A DNA stretch of 64,000 nucleotides, from NCBI GenBank assembly GCA_963836075.1, contig CAWIIB010000001.1:1056001-1120000 (forward strand), in the 5' to 3' direction. Shown here piece by piece: positions 38,397-62,205 of the stretch. Every line of letters begins with the position of its first letter. Positions within the stretch are counted from its first letter, which is position 1. Origin of the DNA: an uncultured Acidobacteriota bacterium (GTDB lineage Bacteria; Acidobacteriota; JAQAZP01). The notes beneath the pieces were generated by a model that saw nothing but the letters and a program-made list of their open reading frames with translations, made no database searches and had not been told where the DNA came from. Both the position numbers and the translations under genes were made by a program.

Positions 38397-39176
38397 ATGA
38401 TGGAAGCAAAAATACTGGCGGTGGGTGATGAAATCCTCAGTGGCACCACCGCGGACAGCAATTCCGGGTGGCTCGCCGGAAGGCTCACCAGGCTGGGCAT
38501 CCGGGTGGTGGAAATCCGTGTCATTCCGGACGTGGAAGAGATCATTGCGAAATATCTCCAACAGAACCAGAGCTGGCCGGGCCTGATCTTCACCATGGGC
38601 GGCATCGGTCCGACCCACGATGACCTGACCCGGGCTGCGGTGGCCCGCGGTCTGGGGCTGGAACTGGTTTCGGACATCGCCTCCCAAAAGGTGCTCAAGG
38701 CTCATTACGGCAGCCGCTGCAACGAGCAAAGACTGAAAATGGCAATGCTGCCCGAGGGGGCGGACCTGTACCCCGGTGCCGATTCAGCGGCACCCGGCTT
38801 CCGGGTGGGCAACGTCTTTGTTCTGGCCGGCGTCCCGGAGATCATGAAGCGGATGTTCGAGGCCGTGGCCCCGGAACTGCCCACCTCGCCCTACCACCGG
38901 CGGGTGGTCTACACCCCGAACAGCGAGGGCGAGATCGCCGGCATCCTGGGTGAGGTGCAGAAGGCGTTCACCGAGGTGAGCCTTGGCTGCTACCCGTCCC
39001 TCTCACGGTTCAGGGCCGGCGGCTACCCCACCAAGCTGGTCTTCAGCTCGTCGAGCACGGAAATCATCGAGAAGGCGCTGCGGATGCTGGCTCGCGAAGT
39101 GGAACTCTTCGTGGATGACGGAATGGACGAGACGAAGCGTGAGCCGCTGCCCCCCACCGGAGGCACCGGTCAATGA
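38397..39176 (+). CDS. CinA-like molybdopterin-binding domain protein
   Basis: VGDEILSG...DSNS, GGIGPTHDDLT, LAGVP. Confidence 0.85.
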   Translation: MMEAKILAVGDEILSGTTADSNSGWLAGRLTRLGIRVVEIRVIPDVEEIIAKYLQQNQSWPGLIFTMGGIGPTHDDLTRAAVARGLGLELVSDIASQKVLKAHYGSRCNEQRLKMAMLPEGADLYPGADSAAPGFRVGNVFVLAGVPEIMKRMFEAVAPELPTSPYHRRVVYTPNSEGEIAGILGEVQKAFTEVSLGCYPSLSRFRAGGYPTKLVFSSSSTEIIEKALRMLAREVELFVDDGMDETKREPLPPTGGTGQ

Positions 39177-53355: not shown

Positions 53356-53772
53356 ATGAAATCGTATCGCAAGGAACTCTGGTTCGAAGTGCCCACCCGC
53401 CGGGCGCTGATCAACATCACCCCCGAGGTGGATGAATGCCTGCGGGAGAGCGGCATCCGCGAAGGGCTGGTGCTGGTAAACGCCATGCACATCACAGCGA
53501 GTGTCTTCATCAACGACGACGAGCCGGGCCTGCACCAGGACTACGACGACTGGCTGGAGAAACTGGCGCCCCACGAACCGGTGAGCGGCTATCGCCACAA
53601 CGTGGGCGAGGACAACGCCGACGCCCACATGAAGCGCCAGATCATGGGCCGCGAGGTGGTGGTGGCCATCACCGGCGGCCAACTGGACTTCGGCACCTGG
53701 GAGCGGATCTTCTACGGCGAGTTCGACGGCCGGCGGCGGAAGCGGGTGCTGGTGAAGATTATCGGGGAATAA
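53356..53772 (+). CDS. yjbQ: YjbQ/UPF0047 (secondary thiamine-phosphate synthase) family protein, intact copy
   Basis: [30 protein letters not shown]. Confidence 0.92.
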
Positions 53773-53833
53773 TGATGCGTAGCATCATCAAGTGACATCG
53801 TTGCTCTGAACAGCCAGATATTCCTCTTCTTAG

Positions 53834-54058
53834 CTACACCCATCACTCGCGTCTACCATATGGGGGAGCTTACGGAATCTAACACATGAATGGCAAGTTA
53901 GTTTGGCTGTTTACGAGTCAAGCGCTGTGACGTGGGATAGATTTACTGTAGCAATCCCAGGTAATGCTGTTCTTGAAGAAGATATCGAAAGCACATTTAA
54001 GGATTTCATTGATGACTTAATTATTGATTACTTGGCGGCCAATAGGAGTAAAAACTAA
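53834..54058 (+). pseudogene. Start-less 3' end of a hypothetical gene
   Basis: Open frame after TAG 53831 with no ATG: ..SAVTWDRFTV..KDFIDDLIIDYLAANRSKN*. Confidence 0.45.
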
Positions 54059-54066
54059 GTTTATTA

Positions 54067-54270
54067 ATGGAAGATCACATAATAAAAGTCAATGCACATG
54101 GCAATAAGGTATGGTCGAAGATTATTGAAGGTATCGATTATGGTTACGCTGTAAAGGAGACATCCGATGGTGGTTTTATTATCACAGGATTCACCGACAC
54201 AAACAGTCAAGATATGTATCTTCTCAAGCTTGACAGCTTGGGGAATGCGCCCACCATCGCTACTAAGTGA
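54067..54270 (+). pseudogene. 3' remnant (last blade) of a 'TSDGG'-repeat beta-propeller gene
   Basis: GNKVWSK..GYAVKETSDGGFIITG..DMYLLKLDSLGN; such proteins normally have many blades. Confidence 0.6.
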
Positions 54271-54362
54271 TAACAGTTGTATCTCAAAATAACGAATGAA
54301 TAATAATGAGGTTTTGCAGCAGCATTTTTCCAAAATAAATCCCGCAGAATTGGCATGGTTCT

Positions 54363-55856
54363 CTAGTTTTGTGAATCGATGGGGTCTATATAAGTGAACA
54401 GCCAGAAAGGGCCAGGCCATGATTTCGTTTTATTAGAAAAATGTAAGACAACCGATGATGGTTTTGAAGCCGATAGATCAACTACTCCATCATTCAGCCT
54501 ATGCTGGATAGCACAAATATTGTTTTCACCGCGCTTGATATTCCATTGCCGAGAATGACCTCTCTGCGGTGAACACGTGAAGACCCATTGTTCATAGTTA
54601 TCTGGTTCATCTGGATCTGGCCGCGGAGTGTGGGCCCTGAGTAAACGACCAGTAGATTTTTGCTGTATTGTATAATAATCGCCTTCCACTCTGGACACAA
54701 TCCACTTCTGTGAATCATCATCCTTAAGCTCAGACGTGAAAGCTCTAGAGTTTTCAGGATCTACTGCCCGAACATCCTCAATCTCATAAGCATCAAGAAA
54801 TTGTTGATTAAAAACATTTTGGATCCTGTATATCCCAGATTTCAAAGAAGTTCCAGCAACTGCTGGAGGAAAAGGGAATTTCTTGCAATACTCAGCAAAT
54901 GCATTTTCCAGTGTTTTTCTTCTCTCCCCGTTTTCGGTTAATTCCCAAATCGGACGCAGACTATCCTCATTAAAATCAACAAGAACAGGCATTCCTTCAA
55001 TTCCATCGGCCCAGCCTTTGTACGCTTCGTAAGTTTCTAAATCTCTCAACAGTTCCGGGTTGCCACCGACCGCATATAGACTTGTAGTTGTATTCTCATT
55101 TTCAATTATACTTTCAGTTTCACCAGATACTTTTACCCCTACGGATATACATTTGTACTTCGCTTTAACGGCTGTCTTAAACTTGTTTTTTTCTTCGGTT
55201 TGAGTATATGTCGTCGAAGCTCTGTATTCTGCTCTTCCACCCAGAATTGCTGAAAAAATGAAATGCGTTCCATACATTTCGAACAGTTTAAAAGGAACCA
55301 TTTCTTCTAAGTCTTGTTTAAAATTTTCTTCCAACAGTGACTTATAAGCATCTCTTCTTTCATCAAATTGTATAAGCCATTTTTGCGTTACATCACCATA
55401 GGTGTAATAATATTTCTTCCCGGTTTTTTCTTTACCCAGCTCAAAATTTTGTTCTACTGATGCTTTAAAGAAAAAGGCATTCGCCCTTAATCCCACTTTT
55501 ACTGCAAGTTCTTGTGAATATTCCTCACGACTCGATCCTTCGGCCGTAAAGATGTCTTTCTGAGAAAGATTCTTCAGTGCAACATAGTCTGGAACCAAAT
55601 ATCGCTTTGTCCCAATTGGCGTTATGGATGAACCGGTATACTTAAAGAGACAATATGGCTTAAGGCCACCCTGTGTTGCATAATCGCCAAATACATCGTA
55701 TCCATAACCGAGAACATCCAATCCAGGCGCTGGCTCAGCCTCTGGATCAACACCAAAACCGGTTTGCTCAAACACAGTTACCAATGCAGTCTGAGCCGTA
55801 GCAGGCGTAATGAATAAAAGAGACAGAATAAGATAGAATGTGATATGCTGATACAT
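54363..55856 (-). CDS. Secreted MACPF-domain protein with C-terminal ricin-B-like lectin domain
   Basis: Signal peptide, LGYGYD, YGTHFIFSAILGG MACPF signature, LRPIWEL; SQKW / YYTIQQKSTGRLL / RQW beta-trefoil; AT-rich DNA. Confidence 0.85.
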   Translation of the reverse strand: MYQHITFYLILSLLFITPATAQTALVTVFEQTGFGVDPEAEPAPGLDVLGYGYDVFGDYATQGGLKPYCLFKYTGSSITPIGTKRYLVPDYVALKNLSQKDIFTAEGSSREEYSQELAVKVGLRANAFFFKASVEQNFELGKEKTGKKYYYTYGDVTQKWLIQFDERRDAYKSLLEENFKQDLEEMVPFKLFEMYGTHFIFSAILGGRAEYRASTTYTQTEEKNKFKTAVKAKYKCISVGVKVSGETESIIENENTTTSLYAVGGNPELLRDLETYEAYKGWADGIEGMPVLVDFNEDSLRPIWELTENGERRKTLENAFAEYCKKFPFPPAVAGTSLKSGIYRIQNVFNQQFLDAYEIEDVRAVDPENSRAFTSELKDDDSQKWIVSRVEGDYYTIQQKSTGRLLRAHTPRPDPDEPDNYEQWVFTCSPQRGHSRQWNIKRGENNICAIQHRLNDGVVDLSASKPSSVVLHFSNKTKSWPGPFWLFTYIDPIDSQN

Positions 55857-56260
55857 AGTTTTGTCCTTTCACTGTACATATAAACAAGTGAATATAGCCC
55901 AGATAAAGAACATACATAATCTGACATTATGAGTTAATTATGAAATATTGTCAAGAGATATATTGCTGCAGTGATTTAATTAAATGAAGTTATTATTTAA
56001 ATATCAGACGTGAAATGTTGAAATGAAACTCAATAATATTACACTTGTAAGTGGCCTTATGAAAAATATAGATTTATTTAGCATTTGTTGTTGGAACACC
56101 TCAAATTGATGGCAGGCATAGTCATAAGAGGAAACTGGAAGAAAAAGGATCGATTAATAAATTATTTTAAATAGGGCCTTCGCCTCCCGAAAGCGCAGTT
56201 AGAAAAGGTAACAATGATTTACGTGACGGATGATATAGCTTGCGTATGAGCTTCACGCTC

Positions 56261-56506
56261 GGCCTGCACCAGGACTACGACGACTGGCTGGAGAAGCTGG
56301 CCCCCCACGAACCGGTGAGCGGCTACCGCCACAACGTGGGCGAGGACAACGCCGACGCGCACATGAAGCGCCAGATCATGGGCCGTGAGGTGGTGGTGGC
56401 GATCACTGACGGCCAGCTCGACTTCGGCACCTGGGAACGGATCTTCTACGGCGAGTTCGACGGACGGCGGCGGAAGCGGGTGCTGGTGAAGATCATTGGA
56501 GAGTGA
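56261..56506 (+). repeat. yjbQ 3' tail, copy 2 (246 bp)
   Basis: Colinear with 53527-53772; about 17 substitutions by hand count, only one changes an amino acid. Confidence 0.95.
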
Positions 56507-56510
56507 GAGG

Positions 56511-56642
56511 TCAGAACCGTCCACCCTTCAAGGCGGTACCGCGGGTGAGCCCCGGAAACGCCTCAAGCGACAGCCACTTGAATACCTGTGAACCCTCGAG
56601 TTTGTAAACCAGGACCTCGGTGCCGGCGCTCGGACTGGGTCC
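56511..56642 (-). pseudogene. Orphan 43-codon C-terminus of an FG-GAP-type domain
   Basis: GPSPSAGTEVLVYKLEGSQVFKWLSLEAFPGLTRGTALKGGRF*, 23/43 identical to the C-terminus of the 62206 gene. Confidence 0.85.
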
Positions 56643-56654
56643 GCGGTCCCGCGG

Positions 56655-56687
56655 TCAGACCCGGGGCGGCCGCTACCCCGGGTCTGA
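56655..56687 (-). terminator. GC-rich hairpin just after the giant gene
   Basis: TCAGACCCGGGG / CCCCGGGTCTGA 12-bp arms; no T-run. Confidence 0.55.
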
Positions 56688-56697
56688 TGCAGAAGGC

Positions 56698-59600
56698 CTA
56701 CCTCTTGTAGGTTACTCCTCCCGGCTTAAGCACCGGACGTTCGCCGGAGGCAAAAGCGGCAATATCGAGCTGGTCGATCTTGCCGTCCCCGGTGAGGTCG
56801 GCCACGATCAGCTCGGCCAATCCCCTGCGCACAAGTTCCGCATTGGTGATCGCGGTGACCGGGGGATGAACCGGCTCCGGCAGGCCGCAGCACGCCGCGT
56901 CATTGCCCTGCAGGAAGTTGATCTGGATGTAGCTGAACTCGTCCGTGTCCACCAGGCCATCGCCGGTCACGTCGGCATGGAAGGGCGCGGTGCCGCAGTC
57001 GGTATCGGCCGAACCGTAATCCACCAGCCAGTTCATCGAGAAGACACCGAAGTCGAGGATGTCGATCCAGTTGTCGTTGTTGAAGTTGCCCAGCACGAGA
57101 TCGCTGGTGGCCGTGATGAAGTCGGCCACATACTGCGTGCCGAAGATCTCGAACGTCGGGCTCACCATGGTCCGGCGCAGGGAGTGCAGTTCGTCCTGGA
57201 CCGCGACGCAGGAGTAGGCGCCGCAGGGCACCAGGACCGTGGCCGAGGCGGAACCGGCGGTGAATTCGACGACTTCTTCAACGGTGACGCTGCTCGGCCC
57301 GCCGCACTCCCAGAGGGTGATGGTGAGGCAGCGGTCGAACGGACCGGCCTCCACGTCGCCGTCGAAGTCGAGGCTGAGCACCAGCTCGTTCACCGCGTCG
57401 ACGGTGATCGTCTGGACCTGAGCCGGCGAGACATTGCCGCAGGCGTCGGTGGCGGTCCAGGTGATGGTGATCGGCGAGTCGGTCGAATCGTAGGGATCGG
57501 TGAGACTGGCACCGCCATCACTGCGCACCCAGCCGATGACCGGCGCCCCGTCGCAGTTGTCCACCGCTGTGGCCGCCCCCGGATCGACAGCCGCCGAGCA
57601 GAGGCCGGCGTCGGCGTTCACGGTGATGTCGCCGGGAATGGTTAGCACAGGAGCGATGCTATCATCAACCGTGATCGTCTGCACGCACTGGCTGACGTTG
57701 CCGCTGGCATCGGTGGCGGTCCAGGTACGGGTGATCGCCTCCTCCTGCGGGCAGGCGCCGGCGGCAGTCGAATCGGAGTAGTCGACCACCGGCGCCGGAT
57801 CAGTGTCATCCGTCGCCGTGGCCTGTCCGGTGAAGGCCGGGTCGCTGGAAGTGCCGCACTCGATGGTCAGGTCCCCAGGACAGACGATCACCGGGGCAGT
57901 GCTGTCCTCCCACTCCGTGTCACCGAGGCGATAGAAAGCGCCGGCGTCATGCTGGTTGTTGTATTCCGTCCAGATCCATCCCGCACTCCTCGCGACATCC
58001 GAGATCCGCACCTCGTCCATTAGGCCATCAAGACAATTCCTGTCATCAATATCACCAGTGTTCTTCCAGCGGGTCGCCAGACCCATGTTGGACGCGTAAG
58101 TCCCCACGGAACAGTTGCCATTCGCCGTCGTGCAGGTTCTGGTCACGTCCGGGTCGCCATCGACGTAGAACGTCATGTCATCATCGGCAATCGAAACCAC
58201 GATATAGTGCCAGGTGTCGTCACTGATGTAGACCGTGCCAGTCTCCCGTTCGGCGGACCCGGTGTAGTCATGAGTTCGCCCGACCTCGTTGTAGCCATCG
58301 GTGATCCCGAAAGAGAACGGGACACGAGTATCAGTACCGCTTTCTCGACGCAATTCGAGCAGGAGAACGCTCGGATACCACACGTCGGCGGCGAGTTCGC
58401 CATTCTCTTGTGACGTCTTGACCCAGGTCGAGATGGTGTAGTCGTTATTGTTGCCGAGGCCCTGGAACTCTGGATCCACGGTCCCGCTGTCGAAGACGCT
58501 GACGTAGTCGTCAATCCCGTCGAAATCGTCGGCACCGTCGATCGGCCCGACGGCATTCTGGGTCACGCCACCAACCGGCGTTCCATCGTTGGCGTATTGC
58601 GTGGAATCGAGGTGCACTCCGCTCGTCTCGTCCAGGTGATGGACCATGAGGAAGTTGAAGTCCCAGGTTTCGGCGACGTTCTCCTGGTTCTCGGCAACGG
58701 GATTGCCGAAGTAGAGGTATAGCGTCGTGTCGACCGTCGACGGCAGGAAGGGCACCTCCACCCAGGCCACCAGATGTCCGGTCGAGCTGTCATATGTTTC
58801 TATCTCGTGGTCCAGCTTCGTTCCGTCGTAGGTGGTAAAGACCAGGTCGTCTCCATCGCTTTGCGCCGTCGTCCGCAGATCGTCGTCGACGATGTCGACC
58901 AGGATTGGAAAGCTGGTGAGGTCGTCGCCGACCAGGGTGTGATCAATGGTGATCGGTTTGCGGAACGGCCAGGCACCGTCCCACCAGGGGCCTTGGACAG
59001 TGAAGCTGAAGACCTCGGTGGTTTCATGGACACCGTCAGTAGCATAGACCTGCCACTGGTATGTCCCGTAGGTCAGCCCGGAAACGCCGACCTGGTAAGT
59101 TCCGTCGTAGACGCCGCTCGCCGAGTCGGAGCCGATGTCGGGGATCGTCGTGACGCTGTAGTCCATCGGCAAGCCCTCCCAGTCGGTCAGCGTGAAGCTG
59201 AGTTGGGAGAGCAGCGGCGGCACGTCGTTGGCGCCGTCTGCGGGGTCGGGGGCGGAGACGAGTGGAGCGAGTGATTCCTCGCCGCCGATCAGGGTGTATG
59301 GCTCAGGCTCGACATACTGGCGCACTCGGACGTCGTCGAAGTGTACGTCCGTTGCCGAGGAGTAGGCGCGCAGCACAGCCGGCCTCGAACCGGTCAAGGT
59401 CGCGTCCGTGCCGCTGAGCCAGCGATTCGTGCCCCGGTCGTCCACCTCGCCGCTCAGTGACGACCCGGCAGCCCCCAGCCCCAGCGGATACCAGGTATTG
59501 GGCACCCAGTGCGCATTGTTGCCGGCGTCCCAGATATCGACGGTCTGGAAGGTGCCGCCGGCCCTCTCCAGCAGCTCGGCCGCGTCATTCAATCCAACGG

Positions 59601-61196
59601 TATCGCGGATGAGCGTTCCGTACCAGTTGTCCTGGTCCTGGTAACGCAGGCCCACGCCGTGGCGGCTGCCGTTCTCCACGGTGAACTTCAACCTGGCGTC
59701 GATTCTCGCATCGGCCGGCATGTTGGCGTCGGTGACAATGACACTCTCCCAGGGCTCCTCCGTTAGCATATTGCTGCGCAGTTCGCCGTTGACCCCACCG
59801 GTCAGCCCCAGGGCCGCACCGATGTCGGTCTCGATGACAAGCCCGATCTGGCGGGTCTTGGGCCCGATATCGGAACCGCCGTAGTAGACCCACAGTTCAT
59901 CATTCGGGAATGTGTCTTTCTCGATGGTGTGCGTCAGGACCCATGGGGCGTCGGTATCGTCACCATCCCATTCGTCAGGGCCCCCCACCCCGAACGCCTT
60001 GCCGATACGCTCGCGCTGACCGGGGTAAAACGTGGGGCTGCTGTCCCGGTAGAGCTCCTGTTCCGAGAAATCGCTATCCGACCTGTAATGGCCGACGAGA
60101 ATGTAATATTCCCCGTTGTAGGTGAACGGGGCTGTGGTATGTCGCCCATTCACAAAAAGCGGATTGTTCGGATCTTGCGTCCAGTTGACCAAATCGGTGG
60201 AGGTCGCCAGTCCGGTCCGCCTGTCTAAGCCCGATGCAACGTTGTTGTGGAAGGCGTAGTACGTCGAGCCGACCTTCATCACGCCGATGATCTCGAGGTT
60301 CTCGCCAGCTTCCGTCAGAACCGGATTGCTCGGGTCCCTGGTCCAGTTGACCCCGTCGGGCGACGTCGCCAGCCCGGCGGCCCTGTAAGTGCCGCTCCCC
60401 ACGTAGAGCATGTACCAGGTGCCGCCCTCGATCCAGACCGTGGGGCCGATCACTTCAGTGTCATCCCACGCGCCGGGTGAACCCACGTCGAGCACCGCTC
60501 CCACCGGATCATCGACCCAGTTGGTCATGCCGTCCGACGAACGCTTGCGGTGAATGCGAGCCCTGCCGCCGCTGTCATGGCGGTAGGTACAGATAATACG
60601 TGCCGCCATCCAGGACCACGGCCACAGCGTAGCCGTCGGCAGGGAACATCGGGTTGTTCTCGTACTTGTGCCAATCGAGATCGTGATAGATCGACCAGTC
60701 GCCGGAGACCTCGCTCCATTGAATCAGGTCACCGCTGAAGTCGTCGAAGAACGAGAAGGTATCCTGCCCGCTGGCCGCGGCGGCCGCGGCCCCGTTCCCA
60801 TAGGTACATGTAAATGGTCTTGGTTGACGATGCAGGGATACTCGGGTTCTCAACCCAGATCCGGGTGTCCGAGGTGTTGACCCCCGACTCGATCCAGAAG
60901 TCCAGCTCCGTCGCGTTGTCGCTGTCGATGAAGCGGATATCGTCGCCCTGTTCATCCATCTCGCCGTTGGCGATCGGGCTGGCCGTGTCCACCGTGACAA
61001 GGACCACGTAGTTCGTCAGGGCTCCTCCCCCGGCGGTGTTGTCAACCGTAATCACCGCTCGGTGAATCCATGCGTTATCCCACCAAATGGATGGGTCGCC
61101 CGACGCTTCCTGGGGGGGGACGAGCAGCGCGAGGCAAACCACGAGCAAGGGCAGAAAACCAGCACGGCTGACGCGAAGACCATCATGATTGTTCAT
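56698..61196 (-). CDS. Giant secreted modular protein: DUF2341, glycosidase-like 5-bladed propeller, DUF2341/LamG, HYR-like repeats, dockerin/EF-hand-like end (frameshifts near 60590 and 60805)
   Basis: WWDNAW..DIRF..LDFWIE; W.KYENNP, GLATSPDGVNW; GLMDEVRIS..RSAGWI; TRTWTATDASGN; ADVTGDGLVD. Confidence 0.75.
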
Positions 61197-61512
61197 CGTT
61201 CCATCCTTTCCCAAACAGACACCAACCGCGAAACTGGCTCCTCCGGACAGCGGGTAGCAGACGAAATCTCTAAGACCTGACGGCTGAAATTCCGTTCGAG
61301 CAGGGGACCCAGACGAGAAAGAGCTTAATGAACGCAGAACTTAAAGCAATTTACATTGAAAATAAGCAATTTACATTCCATATTTTTCAGCAGAGACCAT
61401 TCAGACCAGTAATTTCCTGAAATGGTTGATTCTAATTCGTTTAGGGCAAAACATAGTCCCGAAAGGATTGCTTGAAGAACCCGAGTAAATGTCATCATTG
61501 GCACCGGATTAC

Positions 61513-61695
61513 TCATTTGGTGGAAGTATTTTCATAAGCTCGCATCTTCGGCCCCCGTCCTTTGACATCCCTGCAGGAAAGATGAAAATGGCAGACGTCG
61601 TTCTCATCGCTCTGGCCGCCCAGACAGTTGTCGCCACCGCAATCCCTGACCTCGTAATGGCTGCCGACACACTCGACTCAGAATGCACGGATTCC
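61513..61695 (-). pseudogene. Degenerate Cys-rich gene fragment
   Basis: [36 protein letters not shown]..; internal TGA at 61678-61680. Confidence 0.35.
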
Positions 61696-61763
61696 TCTTT
61701 GTTTCTCAGGAAGTTGGCCGTTCAGGACGAACAGCAAAGGGCAAGTAAAACTAGATTTTCTCT

Positions 61764-62059
61764 TAAACGCCATGCACATCACCGCCAGCGTTTTCATCAA
61801 CGACGACGAGCACGGCCTGCACCAGGATTACGACGACTGGCTGGAGAAGCTGGCCCCCCACGAACCGGTGAGCCAGTATCGCCACAACGTGGGCGAGGAC
61901 AACGCCGACGCCCACATGAAGCGCCAGATCATGGGCCGCGAGGTGGTGGTGGCGATCACCGATGGCCAGCTGGACTTCGGTACATGGGAGCGGATCTTCT
62001 ACGGCGAGTTCGACGGCAGGCGGCGAAAGCGGGTGCTGGTGAAGATCATTGGGGAGTGA
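61764..62059 (+). repeat. yjbQ 3' tail, copy 3 (296 bp)
   Basis: Colinear with 53477-53772; about 24 substitutions by hand count, 3 amino-acid changes, no indels. Confidence 0.95.
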
Positions 62060-62107
62060 GGTGGGTCATCCTGAAGGGACACCGCTTCTGGGTAGCCGAA
62101 CCGCTGC

Positions 62108-62194
62108 TCACGGCGCGATCCCCGTCACCGTGCACCTGTCCATGTCAGTGTTTCCGGCCGGCGGAAACGGCGGCTGGTTGCAGGGAAACGGCGT
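62108..62194 (-). pseudogene. Orphan 28-codon C-terminus of the 'NQPP' domain
   Basis: TPFPCNQPPFPPAGNTDMDRCTVTGIAP*, 15/28 identical and gap-free with the end of the 5860-6969 protein. Confidence 0.8.
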
Positions 62195-62205
62195 CCTGCA
62201 ACCGC

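Follow-up and report, generated by a model that had tools for sequence, protein, structure and literature searches.

The present study concerns an array of truncated yjbQ genes in an uncultured Acidobacteriota bacterium, which lies in and just beyond a 64,000-nt stretch of DNA (hereafter the window; G000:C1:1056001-1120000) of the genome G000 (6.23 Mb, 10 contigs, 64% GC, 94.7% complete). In this array, an intact yjbQ gene is followed by several copies of a yjbQ 3′ end, here called tails, and each interval between two copies is occupied by a cassette whose cargo is an unrelated gene for a secreted-type protein. Our analysis suggested that the array arose through sequential displacement of the yjbQ 3′ end by homologous recombination, with no site-specific recombinase, and we put the probability of this explanation at roughly 60%. 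It is carried by the anatomy of the array, the allelic origin of the tails, their unequal breakpoints, an empty site in a sister species, the lack of a linked recombinase and the occurrence of the same architecture at other genes of the genome. Serial homology-anchored capture, which a preliminary description made from the letters of the window had put forward, is the best-supported explanation here too.

The array begins with the intact yjbQ gene (UPF0047; window 53356-53772, + strand), which encodes 138 amino acids and matches PF01894 with an E-value of 1.1e-37 over profile positions 1-117 of 117. It is followed by cargo 1, tail 2, cargo 2, tail 3, cargo 3, tail 4 and the native genes, in this order. 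Tail 2 (56261-56506, 246 bp, + strand) runs from nt 172 of yjbQ to the stop codon and is 93.8% identical to the intact copy over 242 nt, and tail 3 (61764-62059, 296 bp, + strand) runs from nt 122 to the stop codon with 92.5% identity over 292 nt; both matches lie far beyond chance (BLAST E-values 1e-102 and 1e-120). A whole-genome search revealed tail 4 (G000:C1:1120718-1120831, corresponding to window 64718-64831; 114 bp, + strand), which covers nt 304 to the stop codon, shows 86% identity over 110 nt, and starts 718 bp beyond the window end, past a beta-helix/FG-GAP gene. With tail 4 outside the window, the array thus comprises three cassettes and terminates at core genes, namely a 233-aa open reading frame (ORF) without a name, a gene for an ATPase of the type II secretion system (T2SS) type, and then ordinary genes.

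Repeat finding, alignment and BLAST showed that the four copies are direct, ungapped and on the + strand, and that all of them end at the stop codon. Their starts in yjbQ coordinates are nt 1 (intact), 172, 122 and 304, that is, the tails are 5′-truncated and unequal in length. A different, non-homologous module stands behind each copy (MACPF/ricin, DUF2341/LamG, beta-helix/FG-GAP and the native neighbours), and a weak similarity between the intact yjbQ and tail 3 extends about 30 bp beyond the stop codon. The coordinates of yjbQ and of tails 2 and 3, and their arrangement as direct repeats running to the stop codon, agree in full with the preliminary description. Both of the tails it had reported are real, but its count was short by the third one, tail 4, which was found when the search for further tails that it had proposed was extended beyond 64 kb.

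The divergence between the intact copy and each tail was counted by the Nei-Gojobori method. Tail 2 differs from the intact copy over 81 codons by 16 nt and 1 amino acid (15 synonymous and 1 non-synonymous changes; dN/dS 0.016, dS 0.335), tail 3 over 97 codons by 23 nt and 3 amino acids (18 synonymous and 5 non-synonymous; dN/dS 0.063, dS 0.355), and tail 4 over 37 codons by 5 amino acids (11 synonymous and 5 non-synonymous; dN/dS 0.112). Under neutrality, about 77% of the changes would be expected to be non-synonymous, and the deficit has a binomial P of 4e-9 for tail 2 and 4e-8 for tail 3. No indels separate the intact copy from these two tails. The dS between the intact copy and the tails amounts to 0.34-0.56; G000 is separated from its sister species, G001 and G002, by a dS of 0.31. 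The low dN/dS, combined with dS at the between-species level, implied that the copies had been functional in separate lineages while they diverged. The residues that set tail 3 apart are also present in working yjbQ genes of relatives, and the intact copy has G107 at a site where all the tails and G001 have D. On this evidence, the tails are the displaced ends of different, once-functional yjbQ alleles that were laterally acquired.

The intact allele is distinct from all the tails and retains an open 138-aa frame, which amounts to a target gene regenerated with an imported end, and its 3′ end is the latest imported allele. At the other side of the array, tail 4 alone has decayed in a motif conserved in 20 relatives, with changes that include RRRKRV>RSLQRA, and its state marks the outermost tail as the oldest and most decayed copy. 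The earlier estimates of about 17 changes with 1 amino acid (tail 2) and about 24 with 3 amino acids (tail 3) come close to our recount; the view that the tails were once functional ends of different alleles is borne out by the 15:1 and 18:5 ratios of synonymous to non-synonymous changes and by the dN/dS analysis that had been proposed with it, and the suggestion that the newest cargo lies nearest the intact gene fits the decay of the outermost tail.

To place the array among its relatives, yjbQ loci were searched in 61 genomes, two of which (the unpublished G025 and G048) support no statement made here; only two genomes in the collection are congeneric with G000. Among the 61 genomes, truncated yjbQ copies of high identity were found only in the genus of the window. 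The intact yjbQ protein is 97% identical in amino acids to that of the sister species G001, and the site of G001 is empty: yjbQ is followed by about 0.95 kb and then by the same T2SS-type ATPase gene that in G000 comes after tail 4. In G002, yjbQ is split over two contig ends, and the contig with its 3′ part (C172) runs straight into the native neighbours. The comparison of relatives, which had likewise been proposed beforehand, thus showed that the gene content behind yjbQ varies, with an empty site in G001.

At the yjbQ loci of other lineages, tails were seen at 0 of 80 and 1 of 80 of the loci listed; 3 of 80 listed loci hold paralogues only (27-38% identity). The one exception, L164:5585-6486, belongs to a metagenome contig of another organism, where yjbQ is followed by tandem units, each composed of a tail from about nt 158 to the stop codon and a 75-bp spacer, with no cargo; the first of these tails is decayed by indels except in its last 50 nt. 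The 3′ half of yjbQ (window 53477-53772) is 80-86% identical at the DNA level to genes of other phyla, including Desulfobacterales, Planctomycetales, Bradyrhizobium-labelled genes and others. On the alignments, this identity is unusually high, and because it holds even across phyla, the 3′ half would serve as a good homology anchor. G000 also possesses a second UPF0047 paralogue (G000:C1:1147977-1148378, − strand; PF01894 E-value 1.5e-43), which lies 28 kb past the window, is 37% identical and adjoins a C25 peptidase gene.

The layout of gene, cargo and 3′ tail is not confined to yjbQ. Self-comparison of the genome, followed by inspection locus by locus, revealed it at at least five other genes of G000, with tails that match the intact end at 92-95% identity. 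An lpd-like gene (C9:1913173-1916523) is accompanied by a subtilase (S8 protease) cargo and a 52-codon tail with 1 amino acid change, and a 771-aa gene (C9:1962517-1964832; locus C9:1962517-1971785) by two tails of unequal length (312 and 150 bp). A single tail each was found for three further genes, one glgA-like, one of the DUF2391 family and one at C1:1703 kb; these three occupy the loci C9:1143114-1147042, C9:958488-968792 and C1:1703603-1708446. The subtilase cassette (G000:C9:1914746-1916199) is 96% identical to G001:C133:19946-21399 over exactly 1454 bp, in different contexts, whereas the core DNA flanking it is 88% identical between the two genomes, which suggested that such cassettes move between species. 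The conserved stretch comprises the gene and flanks of about 50 bp, and its boundary lies 4 bp past a promoter-like site (TTGACA-17-TATACA). Furthermore, a decayed copy of tail 4 together with about 120 bp of the native region downstream of yjbQ is present at C9:1817410-1817598 (L008:7410-7598), between an FG-GAP gene and a citrate-synthase-like gene (C9:1811-1818 kb); the whole unit resembles an old duplicate of the stretch from cargo 3 through tail 4 into the downstream region. Tail formation is not specific to yjbQ, and the idea of an undescribed system dedicated to yjbQ, which the preliminary description had entertained, finds no support: at least five other genes are tailed, and the same architecture has been published for rhs and type VI secretion system (T6SS) loci with recombinase-free models.

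No integrase or transposase was detected with Pfam among the larger ORFs from window position 39115 to 44 kb past the array, in a scan that took in neither window 1-39000 nor DDE transposases. In the whole genome there are four PF00589 matches (two of about 315 aa, one integron integrase and one fragment), all of them outside the window, and no match to PF00239 (serine recombinase). The IS91-like matches of the genome, too, all fall outside the window. Neither blastn nor tblastn gave any similarity to IS91 in C1:1108000-1122000. The tail breakpoints at nt 122, 172 and 304 share no motif in their flanks, and no att core common to them was recognised. Upstream of yjbQ, a step in divergence that could mark a crossover gave no usable boundary; the two genes that precede it merely show a greater divergence from each of the sister species. 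Ku was not found in the genome and ComEC is present, and no weight is given to either. The unequal breakpoints noticed earlier are thus real, and so is the lack of an integrase or transposase in the window, to which the proposed search beyond 64 kb adds that none was found by Pfam up to 44 kb past the array; what the earlier view did not take in is that IS91-family remnants stand beside yjbQ tails in both sister species.

The three cassettes differ in composition as well as in content. Cassette 1 (53773-56260, 2488 bp, − strand) holds a MACPF and ricin-B-lectin gene (54363-55856, 497 aa; Pfam) with a signal-like N-terminus. Its GC content is 0.33-0.42, against about 0.64 for the genome, and a sigma-70-like match of 11/12 (window 55954-55926, − strand) represents a promoter-like site; the promoter and terminator scan was not above shuffles (11 vs. 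7.4 ± 2.7, and 6 vs. 10.4 ± 2.8). With cargo 1 as the query, no homologue was found in G001 or G002, and its best database relative is 41% identical. Cassette 2 (56507-61763, 5257 bp, − strand) holds a DUF2341/LamG/dockerin gene (56698-60609) and an N-terminal piece (60729-61214) assigned by Pfam, and three-frame reading showed that its frame is broken by two frameshifts in the assembly. Contigs of the public run X1 are one base shorter at window 60586 and at 60803, the two frameshift positions; these one-base differences are probably assembly errors, and cargo 2 is therefore probably intact. No close DNA relative of cargo 2 was found in G001 or G002. Cassette 3 (62060-64717, 2658 bp, − strand, its window part reaching to 64000) holds a beta-helix/PMP/FG-GAP gene (62206-64545, 779 aa; Pfam and genome ORF) of a family with 271 matches in G000 and more than 200 per genome. 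Just past the stop codon of this gene lies a remnant, about 90 nt long (62106-62195), of the C-terminus of another gene family, which contains …NQPPFPPAGNTD…CTVTG…. The C-terminal domain behind this remnant occurs at more than 150 places in the genome, and the same remnant is found 3′ of an FG-GAP gene at C9:1813980-1814066.

The GC content of cassettes 2 and 3 is genome-like. All three cargo genes are convergent to yjbQ and have a hydrophobic signal-like start, as read by eye with no predictor. The cargo annotations given earlier hold in Pfam, and the observation that every cargo is of secreted type and convergent to yjbQ agrees with these starts and orientations (3/3). The description of the cassettes as foreign applies to the composition of cassette 1, but cargo 2 and cargo 3 have ordinary GC content, and cargo 3 belongs to an abundant family.

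From these observations, we infer the route of recombination, the part played by circles and the sequence of events as follows. DNA of congeneric lineages would have entered three times, each time bringing a 3′ part of yjbQ together with whatever stood behind it in the donor, and would have recombined through the conserved yjbQ sequence. By one route, a circle composed of a yjbQ 3′ fragment and cargo would integrate through a single RecA-type crossover. By the other, homology-facilitated illegitimate recombination (HFIR), a linear fragment would cross over within yjbQ or ahead of it, with illegitimate joining of the fragment's non-homologous end inside the resident gene. In both cases yjbQ would stay intact with an imported end, while the resident end, cut at an arbitrary point, would be moved downstream of the new cargo. 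Repeated displacement would yield the order described above, from the intact gene at one end to tail 4 and the native neighbours at the other. A cassette bracketed by direct repeats could also loop out by homologous recombination, leaving an empty site and a circle able to enter another yjbQ.

Several points weigh against this explanation. The donor arrangement, in which cargo 2 or cargo 3 would stand immediately behind an intact yjbQ of the tail-2 or tail-3 allele, was not found; the donor scans with the yjbQ protein gave at most 92% identity and other phyla only among the matches listed, an absence that carries no conclusion. No circle or recombination junction was observed, and the junctions of the array were checked by short public contigs only, which possibly derive from the source sample. 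Displacement leaves unexplained the first event, which put each cargo directly behind a stop codon. The homology ends 0-45 bp from the stop codon here and 0-7 bp from it at two other loci, and so sharp an end is also expected from elements that carry a mimic of a gene end. All the tails are 3′ tails, and random crossover would also allow 5′ heads. Lastly, the convergent orientation of all three cargo genes is not predicted by displacement.

A different origin of the units would be offered by IS91-family rolling-circle transposons, which may have built them by one-ended transposition past terIS, with the insertion sequence (IS) copies deleted later. An element located behind the stop codon, with terIS toward the gene, would release circles comprising a tail of variable length, the cargo and the IS, and these would insert by transposition or through yjbQ homology, as ISCR1 units do at the 3′-conserved segment (3′-CS) of class 1 integrons. 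G000 does contain such elements: three intact copies (C9:2468920-2470641, C9:2477579-2479300 and C9:2233159-2234562) with a 462-aa Y2_Tnp/Zn_Tnp_IS91 transposase, the other 28 of 31 blastn rows being fragments, many of which are internally deleted. Two of the intact copies are 99.9% alike and lie 8.7 kb apart. IS91 remnants also stand beside ectopic yjbQ tails in the sister species. In G002 (C13), a 170-bp tail has two secreted-protein genes to its left and a 5′ piece of the IS91 transposase gene about 57 bp past the stop codon, with a further transposase piece beyond the cargo, and in G001 (C84) a transposase piece lies 65 bp from a 68-bp yjbQ piece. Two tail loci of G000 show the same association: left (terIS-side) remnants lie 3′ of the stop codons of the lpd-like gene and of its tail, and a left-end remnant lies 16 bp past the stop codon of the 771-aa gene with two tails.

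The literature lends this origin support in its parts. In IS91, terIS is located upstream of tnpA, one-ended transposition accounts for 1-14% of events and circular intermediates form (PMC13181058); ISCR1 units enter the 3′-CS by homologous recombination (PMC8386438); and 3′-CS duplications occur in ISCR1-linked integrons (PMC3575428). On the other hand, C1:1108000-1122000 has no similarity to IS91; one-ended transposition always takes the whole IS, so that three clean losses would be required; no CTTG- or GTTC-like tetranucleotide is prominent at the three tail breakpoints; and a locally copied tail would begin identical and drift neutrally, which the dN/dS values exclude for the array. We consider an IS91 origin of the array doubtful. 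Read-through of IS91 would explain how tails travel to ectopic sites. Given that terIS read-through amounts to 1-14% and that circles form, IS91 could make circles of a gene tail and its neighbour, and it is tempting to speculate that the ends of housekeeping genes act as portable homology tags for a recombinase-free traffic of cassettes to which IS91 elements supply the first step. In that case, an element behind a stop codon would read through terIS and release circles of the gene tail and the neighbouring gene, RecA would insert them at the conserved gene in any related genome, and the direct repeats alone would then let the cassette loop out and spread.

Accretion of integrative and conjugative elements (ICEs), integrative and mobilizable elements (IMEs) and cis-mobilizable elements (CIMEs) can produce a similar picture. 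The incoming element regenerates its target gene, direct repeats bound the units and integrase-less derivatives exist, and these elements use one fixed att core and an integrase. Decayed tandem islands of this kind in the yjbQ 3′ end, whose integrases and left tail parts have since been deleted, would account for the regenerated gene, the tail at the far end, the homology that ends at the stop codon and the newest unit lying nearest the gene, and the tandem tail units of L164 from about nt 158 are in keeping with them. The array departs from ICE, IME and CIME accretion, however, in that its breakpoints are 50-180 nt apart, no integrase was found in the neighbourhood and almost none exists in the genome. 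More precisely, the breakpoints (nt 122, 172 and 304) have no common motif; no integrase lies within 14 kb upstream or 44 kb downstream; and none of the four tyrosine-recombinase matches in the genome is of island type apart from the integron integrase, with no serine recombinase at all. Moreover, the cassettes are single genes of 2.5-5.3 kb, the five or more other anchor genes would each require an integrase of their own that had been lost, and tails occur at only 0 of 80 and 1 of 80 of the listed yjbQ loci of other lineages. The lack of a recombinase and the breakpoints without a motif argue against tandem site-specific islands, which we regard as unlikely. They retain some weight because yjbQ is named among the insertion sites of mobile islands of 22-26 kb in Vibrio cholerae (PMC12082036).

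It is very improbable that strain variants behind yjbQ were concatenated by the assembler through the shared yjbQ sequence. The assembly is of metagenome type with 4.6% contamination and probable indel errors, and several yjbQ-like alleles occur on contigs of the same public runs. On the other side, the host contig measures 2.3 Mb and the repeats are only 110-296 bp long and 6-14% diverged, a chimera would require every cargo end to have a word in common with the central part of yjbQ, and the same architecture occurs at other genes. The evidence from public runs consists of low-depth contigs of 150-500 bp (32 of 566 pieces listed) from runs that possibly derive from the source sample. Among the pieces listed, these contigs match parts of all three cargos with no differences; stretches that they leave uncovered were given no weight. 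An X4 contig crosses the junction of cargo 3 and tail 4 (L046:13546-13822) with 172 + 105 letters and no difference, and another crosses the junction of cargo 1 and tail 2 with 137 + 29 letters, slightly short of the 31-letter rule. Joints that lead from the intact yjbQ into tail 2 or tail 3, among those listed, keep the register of single yjbQ genes of other alleles and are indistinguishable from excised forms. Finally, the reading that the tails were born where they now lie, through duplication of the gene's 3′ end or of a long target site, and then drifted was rejected on dN/dS despite the cargo-free tandem partial duplication in L164, as about 77% non-synonymous changes would be expected and 1 of 16 and 5 of 23 were observed, with no indels and with divergence at the between-species level.

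Arrays formed by displacement of gene ends have precedents among toxin loci, whose published models fit the yjbQ array point by point, and our literature search found no description of yjbQ tail arrays. As described by Jackson et al. (2009; PMC2935791), an intact rhs gene is followed by core fragments of variable length with different tips, and excision and insertion are proposed to proceed by homologous recombination via a circular intermediate. The yjbQ array resembles such arrays in having an intact gene and direct 5′-truncated fragments of its conserved part, variable in length and each with a different module. As in rhs (PMC2935791), the fragments are laterally acquired rather than duplicated and no recombinase is linked to them. 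The rhs variable module, in contrast, is the gene's own toxin tip with downstream genes and its conserved part is the 5′ core. Unlike rhs, contact-dependent inhibition (CDI) and T6SS genes, yjbQ is conserved to its stop codon and has no C-terminal toxin tip of its own with a cognate immunity gene; and, unlike the rhs core, the anchor is a small housekeeping gene with independent, convergent cargo that has its own putative promoters.

For the T6SS immunity arrays of Vibrio cholerae, Kirchberger et al. (PMC5361080) propose HFIR with an upstream anchor. The yjbQ array shares with these orphan immunity arrays the serial insertion at one anchor, which pushes older material downstream, as well as the conserved upstream anchor for HFIR and the rejection of duplication, there on phylogenetic grounds (PMC5361080). 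In those arrays, it is the effector that is displaced, while selection maintains the immunity genes (PMC5361080), whereas the displaced pieces of yjbQ are functionless ends and the retained cargo has no evident link to the anchor. In complex class 1 integrons with ISCR1, too, a conserved segment is partly duplicated around captured non-cassette genes (PMC3575428, PMC8386438). The likeness extends to the entry of a circular unit by homologous recombination, which for yjbQ is a proposed route, and to an IS91-family element in the same genome, beside ectopic tails; it ends where ISCR1 remains in the structure described there, while the yjbQ array has no trace of IS91, and where the anchor is a chromosomal housekeeping gene and not an integron segment.

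G000 has a chromosomal integron as well, with an integrase that includes the integron-type extra segment (G000:C9:572416-573768, − strand) and an array at C9:576100-596550 with no fewer than 11 attC-like repeats, which fall into two families (about 110 and about 140 bp) and have TAAC...GTTA ends. This integron (G000:C9:572-597 kb) and the yjbQ array both gather ordered single-gene cassettes at one place; they differ in that IntI inserts integron cassettes at attI and attC sites delimit them, and those behind yjbQ are bounded by gene tails. Self-comparison, performed with no covariance model, found no repeat pair that joins the yjbQ array to the attC repeats of the genome, and intI and attC lie on another contig.

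The yjbQ array is a mark left by recombination, of a type known from toxin genes, and not a new mobile machine. What is new here is the housekeeping anchor conserved to its stop codon, the independent convergent cargo, and the same scar at many ordinary genes. The additive gain of genes through displaced gene ends reaches beyond polymorphic toxin loci, and no integrase is involved: a 138-aa housekeeping gene and several ordinary genes of the same genome have gathered genes for secreted proteins in this way. The tails are dated and ordered scars that record the arrival order of alleles and cargo, and they mark insertion hotspots overlooked by island finders that are keyed to integrases. Moreover, the recurrent contact with IS91 remnants offers a testable source of the circular intermediates postulated by the rhs model. 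If IS91 elements do supply the first step, this would answer how such an intermediate first arises and would extend displacement arrays from toxin genes to ordinary genes.

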